Part shown: piece after piece, positions 1,121-44,300 of the stretch
Layout of the letters: every line of letters starts with the position of its first letter
How positions within the stretch are numbered: the stretch's first letter is position 1
Source of the DNA: Lama glama
Lineage: Eukaryota
DNA: 64,000 nucleotides
Assembly: GCA_028534125.1 (NCBI GenBank)
Contig: CM052842.1
Coordinates: 930,001 to 994,000, forward strand
Reading direction: 5' to 3'
Translations under genes and position numbers: made by a program
The notes under the pieces: model-generated
Database searches by the model: none
What the model saw: the letters and a program-made list of their open reading frames with translations, nothing else
Told to the model about the DNA's origin: nothing

Positions 1121-5949
<4,829 letters not shown>

Positions 5950-23611: not shown

Positions 23612-25555
<1,944 letters not shown>

Positions 25556-32002: not shown

Positions 32003-33072
32003 ATGAGGAGCGGGAAGGCCTCCTGCGCCCTGGAGACCGTCTGGGAGGACAAGCAGAAGTATGAGGAAGCCGAGGGGCCCTTCCAGGAGCATGAGGCTGC
32101 GCGAGCCGCCGCCCCCGCCACCGCCCAGCAGCTCCTGGCCGCAGCCCCGGCTGTGAACGGGCCAGGTGGGGAGGATGTGGAGGAGGCAGACGCCCCCGAC
32201 GGCAGCAGGAGCGACCGCGGGAAGAGCCCCAACGGGAAGAAGCCCCTGCAGAAGAAGAGGAAGCGCTCCCCAAGGGGCTGGCTCAGCCAGGCGGACCTGG
32301 CCCTCGTGGGCCTCTCAGCTGACCACGTCTGGCTGGACAAGCCGCTTTTTGACCAGGCGGAGAGTTCCTACCACCAGAGGCTGGCAGACGTGGCTGCCCA
32401 GGCCCCCTGGGGTCCCTGCACTCATGGAAGCCAGGTTGCCTGCCACCACGTGACCTTGGGCATCTGGGTCAACAAGTCTTCCTTTGACCAGGCAGAGCGG
32501 GCGTTCGTGGAATGGTCTCAGGCATTGCTGCTGGCTGTAGAGGGGGGCGGCCGGCAGGCAGCTCCCGACACAGGCCAGCAGGCAGCCGCCCCGGACCTGC
32601 ACCTCATCCGCCAGCCCAGCCCACCGGCCAACAGCCAGCCCCCACTGGGCAGCCTGCAGGCGCTCGTGCAGGGGGTGTGGCTCGAGAAGCCACGGTACGA
32701 CGCAGCCGAGAGGGGCTTCTACGAGGCCATGTTTGACGGCCACCCTCCTGGGAAGGTGCGCCTGCAGGAGCGGGCCGGCCAGGCTGAGGGCGCCAGGCGG
32801 GGCCGCAGAGACCGGCGGGGCCGCAGCGCAGTGGGAGGCAAGCGGCTGGGGCAGCGACGGGCCAGCGGGGAGGCCCCCTCTGCTCTGCCCTACTGGCACC
32901 TCCTGCACAAGGATGCCGAGGCCCCCTGGCTCAGCAAGCCCGCCTACGACAGTGCCGAGTGCCGCCACCATGCTGCCGAGGCCCTGCGCACGGCCTGGCG
33001 CCTTGAAGCCGCATCCCTGGCCCGCCAGCCCAGCGCCCGGTCTGGCCCTTCCGTGTCCAGCCTGAGATCCAA
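32003..33072 (+). CDS. EEF1D: Large alternative coding exon of the long nuclear isoform eEF1B-delta-L (full isoform ~638 aa)
   Basis: MRSGKASCALETVWEDK...; NLS KKRKRSP. Donor AA|GTAGGA at 33072/33073 splices in frame to the exon starting at 34803 (G AAA ATG). Confidence 0.9.
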
Positions 33073-34214
33073 GTAGGAGAAACGTGTTGGGTGGATGCCT
33101 AGGCTTCTGGGCTGGGGCCAGCATGGTCCCCTTCCTACCTCCACCCCAGCGGGCCTCTTCCTGATTGCTGGACCCCACTGAGTTGGGTGCTGGGGCGGGT
33201 TGGGGTAGCTCTCTCCTCCTGGGGCATTGCGGTCTCCAGGATCACCCTTGGGGGTCGCTGAGTTCTGGTCACCCCCACCGAGTTTTGGAGGGAAGGGCTG
33301 AGTTTGTCCTGGGCAGGGTTTCCCCTTTGGCCTGGCAACTATGGGCCTGGCAGAGGGAGCAGTGAAGCCTTGCCCGAGCCCCACTGGGGCCTGCCTGGGA
33401 ATTCTGTCTACCCTGTGACCACCTCTGAGGGGAGGTGGGCATCTCGGGTGCAGCAGCACATGAGTCTGGAGGACACCACTGACGAGGCCAACTGGCCTTC
33501 AGCCTGTGTGCTCAGGGGTCTTGGAGGAGGGGGGAGGGGTGGGCAAGGCCAGCGTCTGGCCGTGGAAGGGGCCCCTTGGCCAGCGGGGCTCGGGGGAGGC
33601 CTGGATTGGAGGCGCAGCAGTGAGGGGAGGGGCTGCAGTGCAGGCGGGGTCAGCAGGGAGTTAGGCCTCCCTGGGCCTGAGTCCCAGCAGAAGCCGCTTT
33701 GCTGCTCAGTGGGGGTGGATGTGCTGCTTTGGGAGGATCCGGGCCCTGTGTGAGGGGCCAGGACATGGGGGTTGGGGTGTTCCCTGTTGGGAGTATGGGG
33801 GCAGACCATGGAACTAAAGCTGGATTCATGGTGGCGCCTCACGGGGGCGGGGCACAGAGGGGAGCTCTGGGGCCCGACTCTCCTCTTGTCACCAAGGGGC
33901 ACTTGGCGAGGTCCGGTGATGGCCTGGGGTCCTCGGCACAGAGAGCTGGTGGGATTGGGTCCCTTTCTGTCACGCTCAGTGAGGGACAGGACAGTCCTGT
34001 GGCATCAGGGTTGTCGTGGAGGGCCAGAGGGAGAAGAGGGTGGACCCTGTGCTCGGGTCTGGGGCAGCTCCCCTGTCTTGCTGCGACGTGCCAGTGCTCC
34101 AGTTTGCCAAAACGGATGGTGGCTGCGCCCGCCTCTCGGGCCAGAGTTCGCCAGCTGTTCTCAGACTCGCTGGTCTCAGGATGCCAGGGCTTTCTACCAT
34201 GGACTTCTACCACG

Positions 34215-34522
34215 TTGGTGATAAAACACAGGAGGTTGTTTGTTGGAAAATAATAAGGTCGTTATTTGTTAACATATTTCTGCAGAAATGGTTTCCTTGT
34301 AACAAAAAGATTTAGGAAATAGGGGGCCTTGTTTTACATTTTTGCAAATTTCTTGTGTCTGGCTTAATAGAAGGCAGCTGGATCCCTGCACCTGCTTGTG
34401 CATTCAGTCTGCTGGTGTACGTTGTCTCATCAACAAATTCAGCCTTGAACAAATGTGTGATTGGAAAAGGGAGGACCTTGGGAACCCCTGGAGGTTCGTG
34501 GCTGTAGTTTGAGAGCTGCTGG
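34215..34522. mobile_element. Charlie1-like hAT DNA transposon fragment
   Basis: TTTTACATTTTTGCAAAT...TGTCTGGCTTAATAGAAGGCAGCTGGAT...TTGGAAAAGGGAGGA matches the Charlie1 consensus as recalled. Confidence 0.65.
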
Positions 34523-34806
34523 CCTTGGGGATAGGCCCGGGGACCATGGGCCTTAGAACGGAAGGAAGTCCACGGCGGGGGGCAGGGGTAGGGGCTTATG
34601 GGCTCACTGTGGTCTGTGCCAGGAACCGCTGGTGCTCTGCTCGGGGCCTGGAGCCCTCGTCACCCAAGGATGGGACGGCCTGCCTGGCACCCTTGAGGTC
34701 TGGGCTGTCAGAAGGGGTGCTTGTGCAGGCCCGCCCTGGGGCCTGCAAGGAAGCACCCTTTCCCAGCCAGGCTGTCTTAGTCTCTCCTCCCCTTCCCGAC
34801 AGGAAA

Positions 34807-37800
34807 ATGGCCACAAACTTCCTTGTGCACGAGAAGATCTGGTTCGATAAGTTCAAGTACGACGATGCAGAAAGGAGGTTCTACGAGCAGATGAACGGGC
34901 CCGTGGCCGGCTCCTCCCGCCAGGTAGGGACTCTGCACAGCCACTGCCAGCGGGCCGGAGGAGGGCGGCCTGGCTGGCTCCTGGGGAGCTGGAGCTGCCC
35001 TCGTTTTGGCGCAGGGCGCTCCCAGGGGCCCACAGGACCCGGCCTGGCCGGGCCTGCAGAGCGCGCGCCTCGGGCCCTGTCTTTGCGGCCCAGGACTCTG
35101 TTCTTGTCTGTCCTCCGGCCCCTTGAGCGCATCCTGTGCAGCACTTCGCTGCTCTCCTCACATGAGTGGTTCTTTTTTAAATTTAAAAAAGAGAAAAAAG
35201 AGACTGGTGTTTTTCTGCACTGTCTGCAGGAGAACGGCGCCAGTGTGATCCTCCGTGACATTGCGAGAGCCAGAGAAAACATCCAGAAGTCCCTCGCCGG
35301 GGTGCGTACCGCAGGCCGCCGCCCCCCCCCCCCGCGTCCCTGCTCCTCCCCCGCACTGCTGACTACTTTGGCCTCTTGGAGCAGTTAGCGTAGGGTGTGC
35401 AGGGCTGTGTTTCCACACCGCCAGAGAAGATGTTCTTCCTCTTGTGTCCTTGCTGAGCTGGCTGGCAGTCACCTGGGATGCCCCACCTTGCCTTGGCCAC
35501 TCCTGTGGGGCCAGTGTGGGCCCCCTCATCCTGCAGGGTGCACCCCAAGGCACAGGCCCGGAGACCTCTTGCTTCGGGCTTGCTCTCCCGGCTCAGGAAC
35601 GCAGGAGAGGGTGGCACATGCCATGGTTCATCCCTCCCCAGAGAGATGGGCTCACGGGGCAAGTTGAGTTCTGTTCACGGAGTTGGCACTATCTTGAATC
35701 TGAGGCCCAGATCGGGGCCCTCGGGCCCAGCTCAGCCTCCAGGTCCCACGTGAGATCAGGAAAGGAAGACAGGATCGTGTCTGGCTCTGCCCCCAGACGG
35801 GCTGGGGAGTGTGTCCCTAGGAGGTGACAGGCCTGCTCCACCTTCTTGCCAGAGGAATCAGGACCTCGTTCTCCCCTGGGACACAGGGTGGCACCGTGGC
35901 CTCCAGGGCGAAGTGTCAGCAGAGCTGTACTCTGTCTGCAGGCTCTCGGAGAGTCCACCAGTCCACCTCCTTGCCTTTTCCAGCTCTGAGAAGTTGCCCC
36001 CATTCCTTGGCCCATGGCTTCTGACGTCAGTTTCTGTCACATTTCTGGCTCTTATGTGGACCTTTGTGATGACCCTGGTCTCCCCGGTGGACACCGGGTG
36101 ATCTCCCTACGCCCAGAGCCTCAGCTTCATCACATCTGCAAAGTCCCTTTTGCCACGAGGTCACCTTTTTACAGGGTTCGGGGATTGGTATGGGACCAGG
36201 TTTTAGAACCTTCTGCTGGCCACAGCTGGTTCAGGAGGTCCTGGCTGTAGGTTGGGCAGACCTGGGTGAGTGTCCCCCAGGAAGTGGTGCCACCACGGTC
36301 TGCCCAGCAGACCGTGCTCTGTGCTTGCCTCCTGCCTTGTCTTCCGTCCAGCAGCCCCAAGTTCCACCTGCCACCCTCTGCTTGCTCAACACAGTTCAGG
36401 CCAGGCAGACGAGGGATCAAGGTGGCACAAGGTCTTTGCACTCAGGCCAGGTGCATCAGGCTCCTGTGCCCAGGAGGCCAGTGCTGGGGGCTCAGCAACT
36501 CTGGGGGCTGTGGCCCTGGAGCTTCCTGGGCTGCGGACCTCTTCCCCCACCGGGCCTTGGGGCCTTGGCCACTGGGGTCAGTGGCAGGGTCTTGGTCTTT
36601 GGGGGAAGCACGTGGGTGCTTGCTTGGGCCCGGGGGCAGGTCTGCTTGGGCTGATGTGTGAAGCCCCGCGGACCAGGTGGCAGGAGGAACAGACACTTAC
36701 CTTCTCGTGATGTGGAGGCTCAGCGTCCGAGATGAAGGTGTGCGGGGGTTGGTTCCTCCCAAGGCCTCTCTCCTTGGCGTGTAGAAGGCTGTTTTCCTCC
36801 TGTGTCTCTGTCACATCTGTGTCCACATTTTTTCTTATGACGGCACCAGTTACGGGATTAGGACCACTTGACGACTTATCGTGATTAATTATTGTTTCCG
36901 AGTAAGCCCCCACCCTGAGGCCCTAGTGGTGGGGCCCCCAAGTGAACTTCAGGGGAGCATCATTCAGGTGCCGAGGAACCCAGGAGGGATGCTGCGGCCC
37001 AGCGCCGTGCTTGGACTTGGGTGGGGTGGGGCTCAGCACCTGCCGTCTCTGGAGGTTCCCGCAAACTGCGAGGTGACAGGCAGAGGGCTAGAGGCAGGAA
37101 TGGAGGGTCCTGGATTCAGAACCTTAGTGTGGGTCTGCCCTTGAGGCTGCCAGGTGGCTGCCTATTGTATCATGGTCTGCGACTGGACTGGGTGGCCTGG
37201 GCCCGCCTCACTGAGCTCCCTGACTTTCTGCCCTGCGTAGGGCTGGGCAGGGTGGCCCTCAGGCACAGACGCCATGCAGGGACTATGGGCTTGTGGGCTG
37301 GGCAGCGGTGACCCAGTGGCCCCCAGTCCGGTCTCTGCCCCGCCACTTCCTCTTGGCCTTGCAGCAAGTGGGGCCTTGCCCGGAGCCTGCATCCTCAACC
37401 GTCGGTTCCCACTCAGTGTTGTCACCAGGGCTGTGTTGGGAGGTCCCGGGGCTGGGCCGACATGCCAGGCAGCAGGCTCCAGCCTGCTGCCAGACCCGGT
37501 GCATTTGCTTGGCAGGTGAGCCTGCTGAGAGGGGTCTGGGCCGGAGCGTGCAGGCTGGTGGAGCAGTGGGAAGGGTGGTCAGGGCCTTGCAGGAAACAGG
37601 TGGTTCTGGATTTCATCGCTGTGCGGTGGGGCTGCTGGAGGCTTTTGGTGGGAGTGGTATTGGGAGCTGAGTGCTGTGGGAAGCAGGCTGGAGAGGCTGG
37701 GTGCTCTGTGGCAGCGGCGAGGGCGGTCAACTGGCAGGTGGGTGCTGTTGGCATTTGCTAACCAGAGTAGGAGGTTGTGGGGACAGGTTGGGGATGGACA

Positions 37801-39922
37801 TGTCGGTTGATCTGAAAGGAGGGGAATGGAGTGAGCAGAGCCCACCCCGGTCCTAGGGCCTGGTCAGCACTGCTTCCCCAGCAGCACGGCGCCACTTGGC
37901 CAGCTCTCACGAGACTTCGATGCAGTAGGAGCTGGTGGGTCACAGGAGACAAGTGTCGGCCTAGTACTGCCCCAGGTCCTTGGGCAGGGAGCCAGGTGCT
38001 CAGTGTGTCCTCTGTTGGCAGTGGCCTGGGGGTGTGCAGATCAGAGGAGGAGGCCACATGGCTTGCTCTGTTGCTGCCTGGTGGGTGGGCCCCAGGCTCA
38101 AGGTCTTTACCGTAGTTGGACACTGGAAAAGGGCAGCGGCCGTTGGAAAGGGCCCAGTGACCATGCTCTGTCGTTGGAGCCGTTCCACTGCAGTGTGGTG
38201 GTGCTGAGTGGCCTGCTTGTGGGCCCCAGGGGGTAATTTGAGCCATGGCACCTGGGGGGTGAGCTCCCTGGGCCCCGCTGTTGGGTCAGATGACAGGGCT
38301 CCCAGTCAGGGAGGAACCAGAGGAGGCTGGTGGCCAGGCCAGGGTCCCTGGTCACTCGGAGCTTTTGAGGGAGGCAGGGTGTGGCACTGGCTGCTGCAAG
38401 GTGGCTGCCCCCTGCTCTGGCATGCTCCTTCCTCCTGCTCCCAGTGGGCCCCTCAACTGCCATCCCCTCCTGTTTCCAGCTCAAGGCTGTGCTGCCCAGT
38501 CCTCCTGAGGCTCTGGGCCAGGCTGACCCAAGGGCTTTAAGTCCTTTGCTTCCTCCTACCCCACCGGGCGACGGCAGCTGTGGCTCAGTTCCGCACTGCC
38601 TCTGTTCTGGGGCTGCCTCTGCCCTGGGCCTCCTGCTTCCTGTCCTGTGCTGTCCACTCATTCAAGGGTGTCCCTGGTCTCACATCTGCAGGGCTTTCTC
38701 CCCACTTGCCTGGGGCAGGTGGACCCCGTGGGGCTGACGAACTTCTCACCCAGCTTGGGGCTCTGCTTCTGAATGGCTGAGGTGTTGAGCCCACCCTCTC
38801 CTGCTGCCTTGCAGAGCTCGGGGCCTGGGGCCACCAGTGGGCCCAGTGGAGACCACAGTGAGCTGGTCGTCCGGATTGCCAGCCTGGAGGTGGAGAACCA
38901 GAGCCTGCGAGGGGGTGAGGCCCTGGGCCTGATGGGTGGGGGGCCCCACCCTGCCCCTGCCATCTGACCAGCACCCACTTTGCTCCCACAGTGGTGCAGG
39001 ATCTGCAGCAGGCTGTCTCAAAGCTGGAGGCCCGGCTGAGCGCACTGGAGAAGAGCTCACCAGCCCACCGAGCCACGGCCCCACAGACGCAGGTGAGTGC
39101 CCTCCCCACACCCAGGGACCACATGCCTGGCACTGAGCAGCAGGAGGCCCTCAGATACACGGGCCCTGGTGCCCTCACCCTGACGGGCAGGGTGTGTAGT
39201 TGGGTCCCTGGCTGCGTGGGCCTCAGCCTCCTGTCCCCTGTGGCAGCACGTGTCTCCCATGCGCCAAGTGGAGCCCCCTGCCAGGAAGGTGGCCACTGCC
39301 ACGGAGGATGACGAGGATGATGACATCGACCTGTTTGGCAGCGACGAGGAGGAGGACAGGGAGGCGGCCCGGCTGCGGGAGGAGAGGCTGCGGCAGTACG
39401 CTGAGAAGAAGGCCAAAAAGCCTGCCCTGGTGGCCAAGTCCTCCATCCTCCTGGATGTCAAGCCTGTGAGTGGCTCATCTCTGACCCTCCCCACCCTGTG
39501 CCCTGGGGTCCTGGAGAGGTCGGGGGGGCAAGGCAGGTGTAAACTCAGACTGCTCTGACCCCAGTCCCCCCCCTCCCCAGTGGGATGACGAGACAGACAT
39601 GGCCCAGCTGGAGGCCTGCGTGCGCTCCATCCAGATGGACGGGCTGACGTGGGGGGGCTCCAAGCTGGTGCCGGTGGGCTACGGCATCCACAAGCTACAG
39701 ATCCAGTGTGTGGTGGAGGACGACAAGGTGGGGACAGACCTGCTGGAAGAGGAGATCACCAAGTTCCAGGAGCACGTGAGTGGGCAGGCACACACGGTGG
39801 GGTCCCCAAGTGAACCTCCGGCCAGGCCAGGCACGTGGCAGGAGCACGTGGGCCTTCGTGAACACGAGCCTCCCTCTCCACAGGTGCAGAGCGTCGACGT
39901 TGCTGCTTTCAACAAGGTCTGA
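34807..39922 (+). CDS. EEF1D: Elongation factor 1-delta, short isoform, 280 aa
   Basis: Exons 34807-34923, 35230-35301, 38815-38914, 38992-39092, 39247-39465, 39581-39775, 39884-39922; total 843 nt. [15 protein letters not shown], leucine zipper, DDIDLFGSD acidic region and GEF domain ([16 protein letters not shown]). Confidence 0.98.
35900..36200 (-). mobile_element. MLT1 (MaLR) LTR fragment
   Basis: CCTTGCCTTTTCCAGCT...CATTCCTTGG...CACATCTGCAAAGTCCCTTTTGCCA...ACAGGGTTCGGGGATT is typical of antisense MLT1C/D. Confidence 0.65.
36670..36968 (-). mobile_element. MLT1A/B-like (MaLR) LTR
   Basis: GGAGGCT...TCCGAGATGAAGGTG...GGCCTCTCTCCTTGGC...CACCAGTTACGGGATTAGG...CATTCAG. Confidence 0.7.
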
Positions 39923-39966: not shown

Positions 39967-41399
39967 GACAGATTCCAGCTCTCTGCCTCCTGTCCTGGTC
40001 TGGGCCCCACGGTGGGCACGTTCAGCGAGCGGCACTCTGCCAGGCCCCAGGCCTCATTAGTGTCGCCTGGGCCCCCTGTCTGTCCTGCTGCTCCTGCACC
40101 AGTGGCCACCACCCTCCTCCCCTGTCTTGGTCTCTCCACAGCCCTCCTGTGGCTATGGGACCCCACCACTTGCTGCCCCTCCTATCTGCCCCCTCCCATC
40201 TTGCTCACGCCTCAGTTGCGAGCACCACGTCCAGGTCAAGCTGTTGAAACCAGAAACGAGCACATATTGGCTCCCTCACTGTAGGAGGCATCCCTGTCCA
40301 CCACCTCCTCTCTTCTCTGCCGAGCTGTCCCCACAGGTGCAGAAGTGCCAGTCTGGGACTGTCCAGGGGAGAGGTCCCAGCGGCCGACCTGGCCCTGCTG
40401 TTGTGACTATAGCCAGGCGCCCCATCAAGTTTGAACTGTGTGAACCCCTGCCAGATATCCCACCATCTCTAGAAAGAAGGCCGGGCTTTTCTCAGCCCTG
40501 CCGCCCCTGCTGCCCAGCCCTGCCCCTCTCCCTTCAGTCCTTTTAGGGTGCTCACTGCCCTGCCCCGCCCACCTTCCACTGTGCTGCCTGCATCTGTGGT
40601 CGTGCCTCCCCCTGCCCCCCACACTAGAGACCAGGGCCCTAGACGGATCCCATGACAAACTGCCCTGTGCGCTGGTGCCCACTGTCCTGCCTGTCCCTGT
40701 CCACCTCCACTCCCAAGCCCCGCGTTTGGACAACACTTGAGTCACTAGTGGTTTCTCCTCTGGACTGCTGACCCACATGGCTGTTGAGGCAGCCGTGTCT
40801 GGTGTTGGGAGAAAGTGTGGGTTGTGGTTACTTCTGCGCTGTCCTCCAGGGCCCCCCTCAGGATTTCTGTGGGGCTTTGAGTGCGGAAGCTGAAAGCCTT
40901 TGCTACCAGCTGGGGGTGGACAAAGGGCCCCCTCGCCCTTTGTTGGCACCACACTCCTTCCCGAGCAGTGTGGTATGGGCCTTGCCTGGGGCGGTGCTGG
41001 CTGCGCGCTGCCCTCCCCAGGCCGGGGCGGCCCCTGGGCGGGTGGGGGTGAAGTCCAGCTGGACGCGGAGTTCTGGCTGTCCTCTTCTACCCTCGCGGAG
41101 CCCAATGCACGGAGCTGCCAGCCTCGCGGGGATCGGGACAGGCCACGCGGCAAGGGGCCAAGGGGAGCAGGGGTGACCAGCGAGAGCACACGCCCCCAGC
41201 CCCAGCCAGGTCCAGCTGCTGGGGCCCCTGGGAGTGTCTGGAGGCCAGCGGCCCGCCCCGCCCATTCCGGTTGCCAGGAAAGGCGGGCTCTCCCTGGTGT
41301 CCCCGCCTCCTGGTGCGTCCCGCTGGCTGGGCGGGCTTTGGGGAGCGCGGCGTCAGGGGGTGGACGGGCGGGGCGGCCAGAGTCCGGAGTGCGGGGGTA

Positions 41400-44300
41400 A
41401 TGGCGGCAGAGCAGGACGCAGAGGGGCGCGCGGCGGCCCGGCCGCTGCTCACCGACCTCTACCAGGCCACCATGGCGCTGGGCTACTGGCGCGCGGGCCG
41501 GGCGCAGGACCAGGCCGAATTTGAGCTTTTCTTCCGTCGCTGCCCGTTCGGTGGAGCCTTCACCCTGGCCGCTGGGCTGCGCGACTGCGTGCGTTTCCTG
41601 CGTACCTTCCGCCTCCGGGACGCAGGTATCCCCCGGGCCCGGGAGCCCCTCCTACCCGGCCCCCTTGCCCCGCCCACCACCACTTCTGCCGCCCCTAGAC
41701 GTGCAGTTCCTGGCCTCGGTGCTGCCCCCAGACACAGACCCGGCGTTCTTCGAGCACCTTCGTGCCCTCGACTGCTCCGGGGTGACAGTGCGGGCCCTGC
41801 CCGAGGGCTCCCTCACCTTCCCCGGCGTGAGTGCGGGGTAAGCCGGACGATGGGGTGGGGCTGAGTGGGCCCACGGTGCCGAGCTGACAGCCCGCCCCGC
41901 AGGTGCCGCTGCTGCAAGTGTCGGGGCCACTCCTGGTGGTGCAGCTGCTGGAAACGCCGCTCCTCTGCCTGGTCAGCTATGCCAGGTGGGGCCTGGGGTG
42001 CCAGGTGGGGCCTGGGGTAGGACCGGGGCTCCTGCCCAAGACCCGAAGGCTGGGCTCCGAGGAAGGAGCACGGCCTTCCGGGCCCCACCCGGTGGGGCGT
42101 GGCCCCTGGGTTGGATGGTGGAGCCCAGGCCTGGGTCCTGGAGAGGGACCTTCCGCTCCCACCGTGCAGGGTCCCAGGAGAGGACGGCTCTGGTTGGCTT
42201 CCTGGCCCTCACGCAGGGCCCTTGCCCTGTTGCTCCAACAGCCTCATTGCCACGAATGCAGCGCGGCTTCGCCTGATCGCAGGGCCGGAGAAGTGGCTGC
42301 TGGAAATGGGACTTCGGCGAGCTCAGGGACCGGATGGGGGTCTTACGGCCTCCACCTACAGCTACCTGGGCGGTGAGGGCCAGGAGAGGGAGGCAAGGTT
42401 TGGGAAAGGAGGCCAGCCCTGAGATCCCCCTCACTACAGTACCTGAAGTCCCTCAACCTTGCCTGATGCCCTGGTCCAGGCTTTGATGGCAGCAGCAATG
42501 TGCTTGCGGGACAGCTGCGGGGCGTGCCTGTGGCCGGAACCCTGGCACACTCCTTCGTCACGTCCTTTTTGGGTACCGAGGTGCCCCCTGACCCGGTCAG
42601 TACCCCTGTCTGCCCCACTGCAGTCCAGAGGGCAGACCCCCAAAGCCAGCCGCTGCCCAAGGGGAGGGAGGGACCAGTTCTTGCTCTGCACTCAGGTAGG
42701 TGCCGTGCCTGGCCCACCTCAGCCACCCTGGCAGGCAGTCTTGGTGCTGCACTGGGAAGCTGGCAGGCAGGTGGCTCAGACCCTTTACCAGGGACAAACC
42801 AGACCCCACCCTGTGCTCTGGATCTTCCATCCTTCACCAGTTCGTCTCCCTAGATGTTGGCTCCTGCTGCTGGTCAAGGCCCCAAGGTGGACCTGGCCGC
42901 CTGTGTGGAGACATGGCTGGAGCGTGTGTGTGCCCACCTGGGGCTGGGAATGCAGGAGCCACACCGGGGGGAGCGGGCAGCCTTTGTGGCCTATGCCCTG
43001 GCCTTTCCCCGGGCCTTCCAGGGCCTGCTGGACACCTACAGCGTGCGGAGGTGAGGCCCAGGCATCCCCGGAGCGGGCTCAGCCGAGCACCTTCAGGCCC
43101 CCGACCGCCTTGCCCTGCCTGCAGGAGCGGCCTTCCTAACTTCCTGGCTGTAGCCCTGGCTCTGGAGGGGCTGGGCTACCAGGCAGTGGGCGTGAGGCTG
43201 GACAGCGGCGACCTGCTTCAGCAAGCCCAGGAAATCCGCGGAGTCTTCCGAACGGTGGCGGCCCAGTGAGTCCCCGGGGTACTTTGCCTGCTGAGACCCC
43301 CTCTGGGGTTGGAATGTTGGGATGGGACAGAGGAGGGGAAGGAGGGACCTTCCCAACCTTCACCCCTCCCACGGTGAGGCTCTCTGGTGTGGTCGCTACC
43401 TCAGTAGAGTAGGCACGGCCCTGGCGAGGAGGCTGGGGTGGGCTCACTCAGGGGCCTGCAGGCAAAAAGGCCAGAGCCAGCATGGCTGAAGGCAGATTAT
43501 CAGGGGGTGGGGAGATGGCATGACGGGTGGGAGGGGACCGGTGCATCAGGAGCAGCGGAGGGGCTGCCCACACAGGTTCCGGGTGCCCTGGCTAGAGTCG
43601 GTCCCTATCACCGTCAGCAACAGCATTGATGAGGAGGAGCTGGCCCGGCTGGCCCAGAAGGTGAGTGGGGCGGGGGCAGGCCAGAGGGCGGCTGGGGGCC
43701 CCAGGCCTGCAGGTGCTGGACGAGCCCAGGGCTGCCTCCCGTCCCCTCCTCCAGGGCAGCGAGGTGAACGGCATCGGCATCGGCACGAGCGTGGTCACTT
43801 GCCCGCGTCAGCCTTCCCTGGGCTGTGTCTACAAGGTGAAAATGGGGCAGGGGCCCTGTGGGGGCGGGCTGGGCTGGGTCATGGGCCCGAGGAGAAGGGT
43901 CCAATTCTGCTGACACCCTGTCTCCGCAGCTGGTGTCCGTGGGAGGCCAGCCACGAATGAAGCTGACTGAGGACCCAGAGAAGCAGACATTGCCGGGGAG
44001 CAAGGCTGCCTTCCGGCTCCTGGGCTCCAACGGTGAGGCCTGCCTTGCTGACCCTCTGCGGTTCGGCTCAAGGCCTCTGGCCCCCCACGTTATTCTTGGC
44101 ACCCCTGACACGCACACACACACAGGGTCTCTGCTGATGGATGTGCTGCAGTTGGCAGAGGAGCCACCTCCCCAGGCTGGCCAGGAGCTGCGAGTCTGGC
44201 CTCGAGGGGCCCAGGAGTCCTGTACCGTGAGGCCGGCCCATGTGGAGCCACTTCTGCGACTCTGGGTCCAGCAGGGACAGGTGACCACCCCTACCCACCC

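Follow-up and report, generated by a model that had tools for sequence, protein, structure and literature searches.

What does the large alternative exon of EEF1D add to the elongation factor eEF1B-delta in its long isoform (eEF1B-delta-L)? The question was addressed in a stretch of llama DNA (Lama glama, assembly GCA_028534125.1, contig CM052842.1, positions 930,001 to 994,000 of the forward strand), here termed the window; coordinates are positions within its 64,000 nucleotides, and all EEF1D features lie on its plus strand. Five further copies of the EEF1G-binding helix of the short isoform were found in the product of this exon. The sequence comparisons make it likely (probability roughly 0.6) that the long form binds EEF1G multivalently, through unequal sites, the array being carried on predicted flexible linkers. 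The same gene, its large alternative exon, the nuclear localisation signal (NLS) and the in-frame joining have been described (PMC4346937, PMC6176097, PMC6451099); besides the NLS, the features described there are two stretches, one leucine-rich and one basic, and repeats are not among them. The exon is included in brain and testis mRNA of human and mouse, and membership of the long form in eEF1B was left open (PMC4346937). Residues 181-367, which hold two of the copies (R4 and R5 below), are drawn as a blank box with no identified motif (PMC6451099, figure legend). Loss of the long exon alone causes recessive intellectual disability (p.Glu24Serfs, p.Trp316Ter, p.Gln226Ter; PMC13685516) and, in the mouse, seizures and excess protein synthesis (PMC6176097). 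The repeats give named residues to mutate in a 366-residue region so far pictured as an NLS and a blank box. They also offer a mechanism by which the long form could repress translation, an effect so far unexplained, and tie in with the recently reported gating of the EEF1G cleft by glutathione.

Copies of the EEF1G-binding helix in the long exon

The coding part of the long exon spans 32003-33072 (ATG at 32003, 356 codons plus two nucleotides, GT donor after 33072). Splicing of its end to the acceptor at 34803, which lies four bases 5' of the short-form ATG, keeps the frame and gives ...RSK|K-M-ATNF. Over residues 1-357 of the annotated alpaca elongation factor 1-delta isoform X1, the product shows 99.7% identity. 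The first coding exon of the short isoform, with acceptor and donor, occupies 34803-34923 (ATG at 34807) and carries the canonical EEF1G-binding segment (residues 11-29, 34837-34893).

The repeat unit, W-x2-K-x2-[FY]-[DE]-x-A-E, occurs five times in the long exon in addition to the canonical copy, with Trp codons at 32042, 32330, 32465, 32678, 32927 and 34840. The original prediction had placed five dispersed copies of the N-terminal motif at these codons, and all six positions and peptides were confirmed. In short-form numbering, W12, K15, A21 and E22 are identical across all six copies, so that Glu22 is present in each of the five extra ones. Tyr26 is retained in R4 only, its place being taken by Q, H, V and H in R1, R2, R3 and R5, respectively. 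Lacking Y26, the copies R2, R3 and R5 were classed as derived rather than as full members of the type seen in the crystal structure 5JPO.

The individual copies were scored with a position-specific scoring matrix (PSSM) of 19 columns built from 25 last-position (canonical) copies only. R1 (32039-32095, Trp at residue 14) reached 24.9 bits and carries the camelid E-G-P-F-Q in place of E-R-R-F-Y/H. R2 (32327-32383, Trp 110; 25.3 bits) retains K15, A21, E22 and an aromatic residue at position 25, with Q/R/H at position 26, and R3 (32462-32518, Trp 155; 23.0 bits) retains F18 and F25, with V/M/I at position 26. R4 (32675-32731, Trp 226) has the full motif, including E22, F25 and Y26, scored 43.7 bits and is predicted to be the best candidate for a complete EEF1G site. 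R5 (32924-32980, Trp 309; 14.1 bits) has F25-Y26 replaced by H-H in placentals, this pair often being F/Y-Y in other vertebrates. The canonical segment scored 68.2 bits.

The next site in the long exon after these copies scored −19, and the highest score among 20,000 shuffled sequences was 12.7 bits, below all five copies (14.1-43.7 bits). No hits were obtained with the same matrix among 120 EEF1G proteins (48,361 residues). The significance of the repeats and their origin by duplication of the canonical motif, the latter proposed originally, are supported by a comparison that keeps a small circularity, the 25 canonical copies having come via a profile that included the repeats. A search of the window in all six frames gives exactly six matches to the pattern W..K..[FY][DE].AE, and not one match turned up in 200,000 shuffled versions of the exon protein; this count is circular, because the pattern was derived from the copies themselves. 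Residues 1-30 of the short form matched the crystallised helix (PDB 5jpo_E) with an E value of 1.1e-16, and R4 matched it weakly (E 0.42). An insensitive search of the genome with R4 as the query returned one candidate for a motif-bearing locus, R4 itself. The distance from one Trp to the next varies from 45 to 96 residues in the window and from 45 to 141 across species. A folded tandem-repeat (solenoid) domain was rejected on the basis of this irregular spacing, the low fold score given below and the lack of an above-cut-off Pfam family.

What the canonical helix does is known. PDB 5jpo_E comprises EEF1D residues 1-30, crystallised together with EEF1G's GST-like domain; in hydrogen-deuterium exchange (HDX), only EEF1D residues 11-29 are protected upon EEF1G binding, and removal of residues 1-43 abolishes binding (PMC9458455). 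EEF1D and EEF1G associate 1:1 in solution, EEF1D itself being trimeric (PMC9458455). The helix formed by residues 14-28 adjoins the glutathione site, the exchanges E22R and Y26E, as well as EEF1G R14E, strongly reduce binding, and oxidised glutathione displaces EEF1D from EEF1G (bioRxiv 2025.10.13.682107). The conserved repeat corresponds to positions 11-26 and so falls within the mapped footprint. The proposed match of the copies to the EEF1G-binding segment is therefore borne out by the crystallised peptide, the HDX footprint and the E22 and Y26 mutants. The window copies share the W-x2-K-x2-Y-D-x-A-E-x2-F-Y unit of the 5JPO helix, E22 is present in all of them and they are helical in the structural model. 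In contrast to the single site per chain of the crystallised system, the window array comprises five more copies as candidate sites, four of them without Y26.

Conservation and age of the array

Among placental mammals, 120 of the 361 long forms found were listed and one was dropped, leaving 119 proteins, many of them isoforms of the same species. The strict pattern is present in R2-R5 of all 119 and in R1 of 64, and the mean column conservation is 0.98 in the motif cores versus 0.86 elsewhere. The middle of R1 reads RRFY in 62, RRFH in 42 and GPFH in 2 of 118 placental proteins, the last of these having the G-P that the window copy carries midway along the helix.

A profile of the six window copies was run against 1.84 billion representative sequences and gave 259 hits at E ≤0.001, of which the best 150 were examined; among these, 45 sequences carried 2-6 copies and 6 carried none. 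Look-ups of 30 clusters assigned the array to platypus, four birds, newt, caecilian, frog, paddlefish and several teleosts, and also to a cluster that includes a whale-shark sequence, to elephant shark, to sea lamprey and to hagfish; no reptile was named among these 30 clusters. The lamprey and hagfish forms have three extra copies each, which were not assignable to the R positions, and some fish forms are without R2 or R3.

Twenty-eight long forms chosen from the profile hits were aligned, 24 of them non-placental and 26 from jawed vertebrates. In the 24 non-placental sequences, identity to alpaca was 0.50 in the motif windows versus 0.22 outside them. Motif-core identity was 0.71 against a null of 0.29, a value reached by 1 in 200,000 random placements. 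A copy was counted only if its Trp was aligned and its score was at least 10, some sequences being fragments; by this count, the numbers of the 26 jawed-vertebrate sequences with a given copy are 13 for R1, 24 for R2, 23 for R3, 26 for R4, 24 for R5 and 19 for the canonical copy. Position 26 is Tyr in 24 of 26 R4 copies, and most copies of R1 and R5 have either Tyr or His there. The copies put forward in the original prediction are therefore conserved across vertebrates, and the array is much older than mammals, a point that prediction did not make.

In a FastTree analysis, the copies grouped by position (R1 13/13, R2 24/24, R3 23/23, R4 26/26, R5 23/24, canonical 19/19). The bootstrap values, out of 112 and based on 27 columns, were 104 for R3, 102 for the canonical copy, 79 for R1, 66 for R5, 46 for R4, 37 for R2 and 56 for R1 with the canonical copy. 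Since the copies group by position, we infer that the array existed before the split between sharks and bony vertebrates, and we see no trace of recent homogenisation. The claim of serial duplication stands as far as duplication is concerned; the order of events does not follow from bootstraps of 37-104. R1 resembles the canonical copy most, with a mean similarity of 59 versus 37-49 for the others, and lies just after the start Met, which suggests that the long exon may have arisen by duplication of the first coding exon; the bootstrap for R1 with the canonical copy is just 56 of 112. A nearest-neighbour result of 129/129 was helped by close relatives and flanks, and was set aside as proof.

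The long form is described in print as restricted to mammals and birds (PMC4346937, PMC6176097). The gene models collected here conflict with this restriction, adding amphibians, bony fishes, sharks, lamprey and hagfish. The long form would accordingly date from early vertebrates and not from birds and mammals, and fish and amphibian models would become available if the gene models are expressed.

Candidate partners of the repeated helix

In an AlphaFold2 model of the long N-terminus, based on a 40-sequence alignment, no globular fold was obtained (predicted template modelling score, pTM, 0.22; mean predicted local distance difference test, pLDDT, 59), and one helical block was predicted per copy (residues 14-23/25-35, 113-133, 158-180, 216-244 and 312-340). 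A complex was modelled, with alignments unused, for the R2-R3 fragment (residues 100-176) and two copies of a mammalian EEF1G domain (P0293, residues 1-215). The median score was 0.47 (runs 0.80, 0.47 and 0.00), and the best of three controls reached 0.05. The runs share at least 2% of contacts, partner pLDDT was at least 33 and no interface was returned. Of 78 solved complexes, 51 attain the mark set for this score, as do 2 of 108 mismatches; at scores of 0.60 or below, it is reached by just 5 of the 78 and by all 4 passing mismatches (of 180). In the eukaryote calibration, 71 of 105 solved pairs attained it overall (39 of 65 when no similar complex had been solved earlier, 12 of 29 when the interface was small), and so did 2 of 126 unrelated pairs. 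The complex prediction, which covered R2-R3 only, lends weak support to docking of this fragment and is a small push in that direction.

If the long form is a multivalent EEF1G binder, R4 and an intact R1 would be the strong sites, and R2, R3 and R5 are predicted to be weaker. The copies would occupy the cleft of the EEF1G GST-like domain in competition with short EEF1D. Because EEF1D trimerises via its zipper, a few long chains could link several EEF1G-EEF1B2 units, and such cross-linking or sequestration would lower elongation; oxidised glutathione and ubiquitylation of the motif lysine could free the array. Such trapping fits the published effects of the long form, whose over-expression lowers translation and whose knockout raises it in neurons (PMC6176097). 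The original prediction of a multivalent scaffold of up to six sites holds up as likely in its multivalency; equality of the sites does not, with Y26 missing from four of the five extra copies, R1 degraded in the window and R1 absent from 13 of 26 jawed-vertebrate sequences. The carriage of EEF1G into the nucleus, also part of that prediction, is the least supported step of the proposal. Relocation of eEF1A, eEF1B-gamma and ValRS by the long form has already been guessed in print (PMC6176097).

Several observations weigh against multivalent EEF1G binding. Y26, which is important for binding, is missing from R1, R2, R3 and R5 of the window and is Tyr in none of 24 R2 copies (Q/R/H) and none of 23 R3 copies (V/M/I), and R1 is lost or unrecognisable in half of the jawed-vertebrate sequences. 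The deep sequences were retrieved with the motif profile, and this retrieval, together with the counting of copies by an aligned Trp and a score of at least 10, inflates the apparent invariance; the non-mammalian long forms are mostly predicted gene models. The case for EEF1G binding by the extra copies is built from sequence and a model. One of the three complex runs scored 0, peptides and disordered chains fall outside the calibration of the complex tool, and 5JPO is a solved like complex, so that the score may reflect this likeness. The long form retains the canonical site, and EEF1G binding as such needs no array. The short form rises in the long-form knockout (PMC6176097), which could itself raise translation. 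Nuclear partners have also been mapped to this region, RNF20/40 to both N-terminal fragments, together spanning residues 1-367 (PMC6451099), and p-TEFb and HSF1 to residues 181-367.

These nuclear partners are the basis of the strongest rival explanation, which we hold to be unlikely, namely that the copies descend from the EEF1G-binding helix and now serve RNF20/40, p-TEFb, HSF1 or another GST-fold protein (e.g., the N-domain of ValRS), the array being a transcription-factor scaffold. Binding of RNF20/40 to both fragments is as expected of a repeated element, each fragment having copies (human W14, W112 and W164 in one, W233 and W316 in the other), and the position-specific signatures (N14, F18 and V/M/I26 in R3; Y25 and Q/R/H26 in R2) suit separate partners. 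However, RNF20 co-precipitates the long form and not the short one, although the latter has the canonical copy (PMC6451099). Moreover, the residues common to every copy are those of the EEF1G footprint, E22 included, and the array is older than mammals and arose in insect EEF1D too.

Less probable still is a roughly bivalent long form, in which only R4, together with an intact R1, binds EEF1G and R2, R3 and R5 are kept for another purpose, e.g., packing with a Cys/His patch or with each other. The replacement of Y26 in R2, R3 and placental R5, their scores of 14-25 bits versus 44 for R4 and 68 for the canonical copy, and the conserved flanks adjoining them (L101, G103, C139-H149 and L301-E306) speak for this arrangement. 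On the other hand, R2 and R3 retain W, K/R, aromatic 18, A21, E22 and aromatic 25 throughout the bony vertebrates, and R3 does so in sharks as well; the AlphaFold2 model contains no packed domain, and docking of the R2-R3 fragment gained its weak support in the complex model. A reading of the repeats as relics, or as fortuitous similarities within a low-complexity exon, with no present function, is very improbable, since the decay of R1 in camelids and many other lineages and the fish forms without R2 or R3 are outweighed by the score of every copy above all shuffles and by motif cores far more conserved than the spacers from sharks to mammals, which already contradict it.

The reading of the long form as a multivalent EEF1G binder may be connected to its published modification. 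K381 of the human long form is monoubiquitylated by RNF20/40 (PMC6451099) and corresponds to K15 of the canonical copy (34849-34851), and an equivalent Lys is present in all five extra copies. Since K381 is the motif lysine, its ubiquitylation by RNF20/40 could turn the canonical site off; a statement of this link was not found in the accessible portions of PMC6451099 or of the related papers examined. Human W316, the site of the disease nonsense allele, is the Trp of R5. A bolder extension, put forward tentatively and with the odds against it, is that the long exon is a vertebrate-wide, stress-gated EEF1G sponge. With up to five extra helices per chain, it would hold eEF1B-gamma and slow elongation in neurons and germ cells; release of the chain for its nuclear role would come with oxidised glutathione or with ubiquitylation of K15 (K381). 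The same helix would then be a general EEF1G-docking motif, and its multiplication would extend to the EEF1D of insects and to unrelated MSS51-like and ZCCHC24-like proteins of arthropods.

Long isoforms with a built-in copy of a partner's docking motif are known, e.g., the PDE-gamma-like tail of RGS9-2. By analogy, the EEF1D array would share with RGS9-2 and with multivalent short-motif scaffolds a disordered chain with repeated docking helices and an isoform-specific inclusion that alters partner binding. In contrast to such systems, the motif would here have been copied from the next exon of the same gene, and the target would be a core translation complex with a glutathione-gated cleft. 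The gene, the isoform, the NLS, the binding helix and the guess of EEF1G relocation are already known, and the repeat architecture is apparently unreported. No account of the repeats was found in the open-access literature searched; subscription papers and database annotations lay outside this search, and prior notice there is possible. In their accessible portions, the word 'repeat' does not appear in PMC13231004, PMC7160314 or PMC13685516, nor 'motif' in PMC7841112, and PMC10452860, PMC8623629 and PMC13336642 contain nothing on repeats.

Other features of the locus and further motif-bearing proteins

The basic cluster KKRKR, followed by SP, was confirmed at 32252-32266 and corresponds to the published N-terminal NLS region (PMC4346937); R86-S89 show identities of 0.75-0.79 in the 24 non-placental sequences. 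The tetrapeptide VNGP, which had been likened to the MNGP that follows the canonical motif, is present at 32153-32164, with identities of 0.71 for N52 and 0.88 for G53 among the non-placentals. Its Asn lies 38 residues past the Trp versus 18 in the canonical copy; the likeness does not establish homology, and VNGP was left out of the repeat unit. Just 5' of R3, a Cys/His patch (C-x-H-x4-A-C-H-H, 32417-32449) is present as a pattern in 20 of the 28 vertebrate sequences, and its ACH[HQ] part in 22 of 28. As judged from its sequence, the patch adjoining this docking helix is a possible metal-binding or redox site. Between R3 and R4, PDTG (residues 188-191, 32564-32575) belongs to a strongly conserved P-D-x-G (0.92), and TPDEG[YF] stands at this position in 17 of the 28 sequences, all non-placental; we take it to resemble a phosphodegron-type site. 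A Cytochrom_C_2 match on the long exon was sub-threshold and was set aside as helical-composition noise. Pfam gave no family for the motif, no above-cut-off family on the long exon and none on the canonical exon. The full EEF1D protein matches PF10587 and PF00736 (acidic region and GEF domain), and the remaining exons, for the leucine zipper, the acidic region and the GEF domain, lie at 35227-39919 (limits approximate, from tblastn). At the 33072/34803 junction, 65 of the 119 placental proteins have RPKKM and 45 have PNRKM, the alpaca form being the shorter one, and published residue numbering shifts with this one-residue difference.

The neighbours of EEF1D in the window include a C2H2 zinc-finger exon (4963-5946, plus strand) and a CENP-B-type gene (approximately 23700-25200, minus strand). 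We take the latter to be TIGD5 and 41052-41861 (plus strand) to be the start of NAPRT, an order that presumably agrees with the human locus. Elsewhere in the genome, two diverged, apparently processed EEF1D copies (L002, L003) match the short form only. An intronless EEF1G copy (L004:679-1920) has a 413-residue open frame whose residues 1-215 differ from human at 3 positions, and a second, split EEF1G match (L005, L006) is probably the parent gene.

Outside vertebrate EEF1D, the proteins that follow are single gene models and serve as leads only. The EF1-delta of two triatomine bugs (P0230, P0269) contains two motif copies 57-63 residues apart, a duplication that, judging by sequence, is probably independent of the vertebrate array. 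Further leads are P0206, P0427 and P0250, which are not EEF1D. Five other profile hits with many matching stretches (P0158, P0208, P0210, P0211 and P0252) were discarded; none has a PSSM copy, and three are TPR proteins. Two motif copies are present in a krill 3CxxC zinc-ribbon, ZCCHC24-like protein. P0206, a 3,066-residue zf-MYND and MSS51_C protein, carries four copies (residues 1520-1755). When the motif region of P0206 was compared with shorter proteins, a single relative came up, a barnacle protein that has one copy. P0206 also contains another family of repeats, acidic in nature, which was seen by eye upstream.

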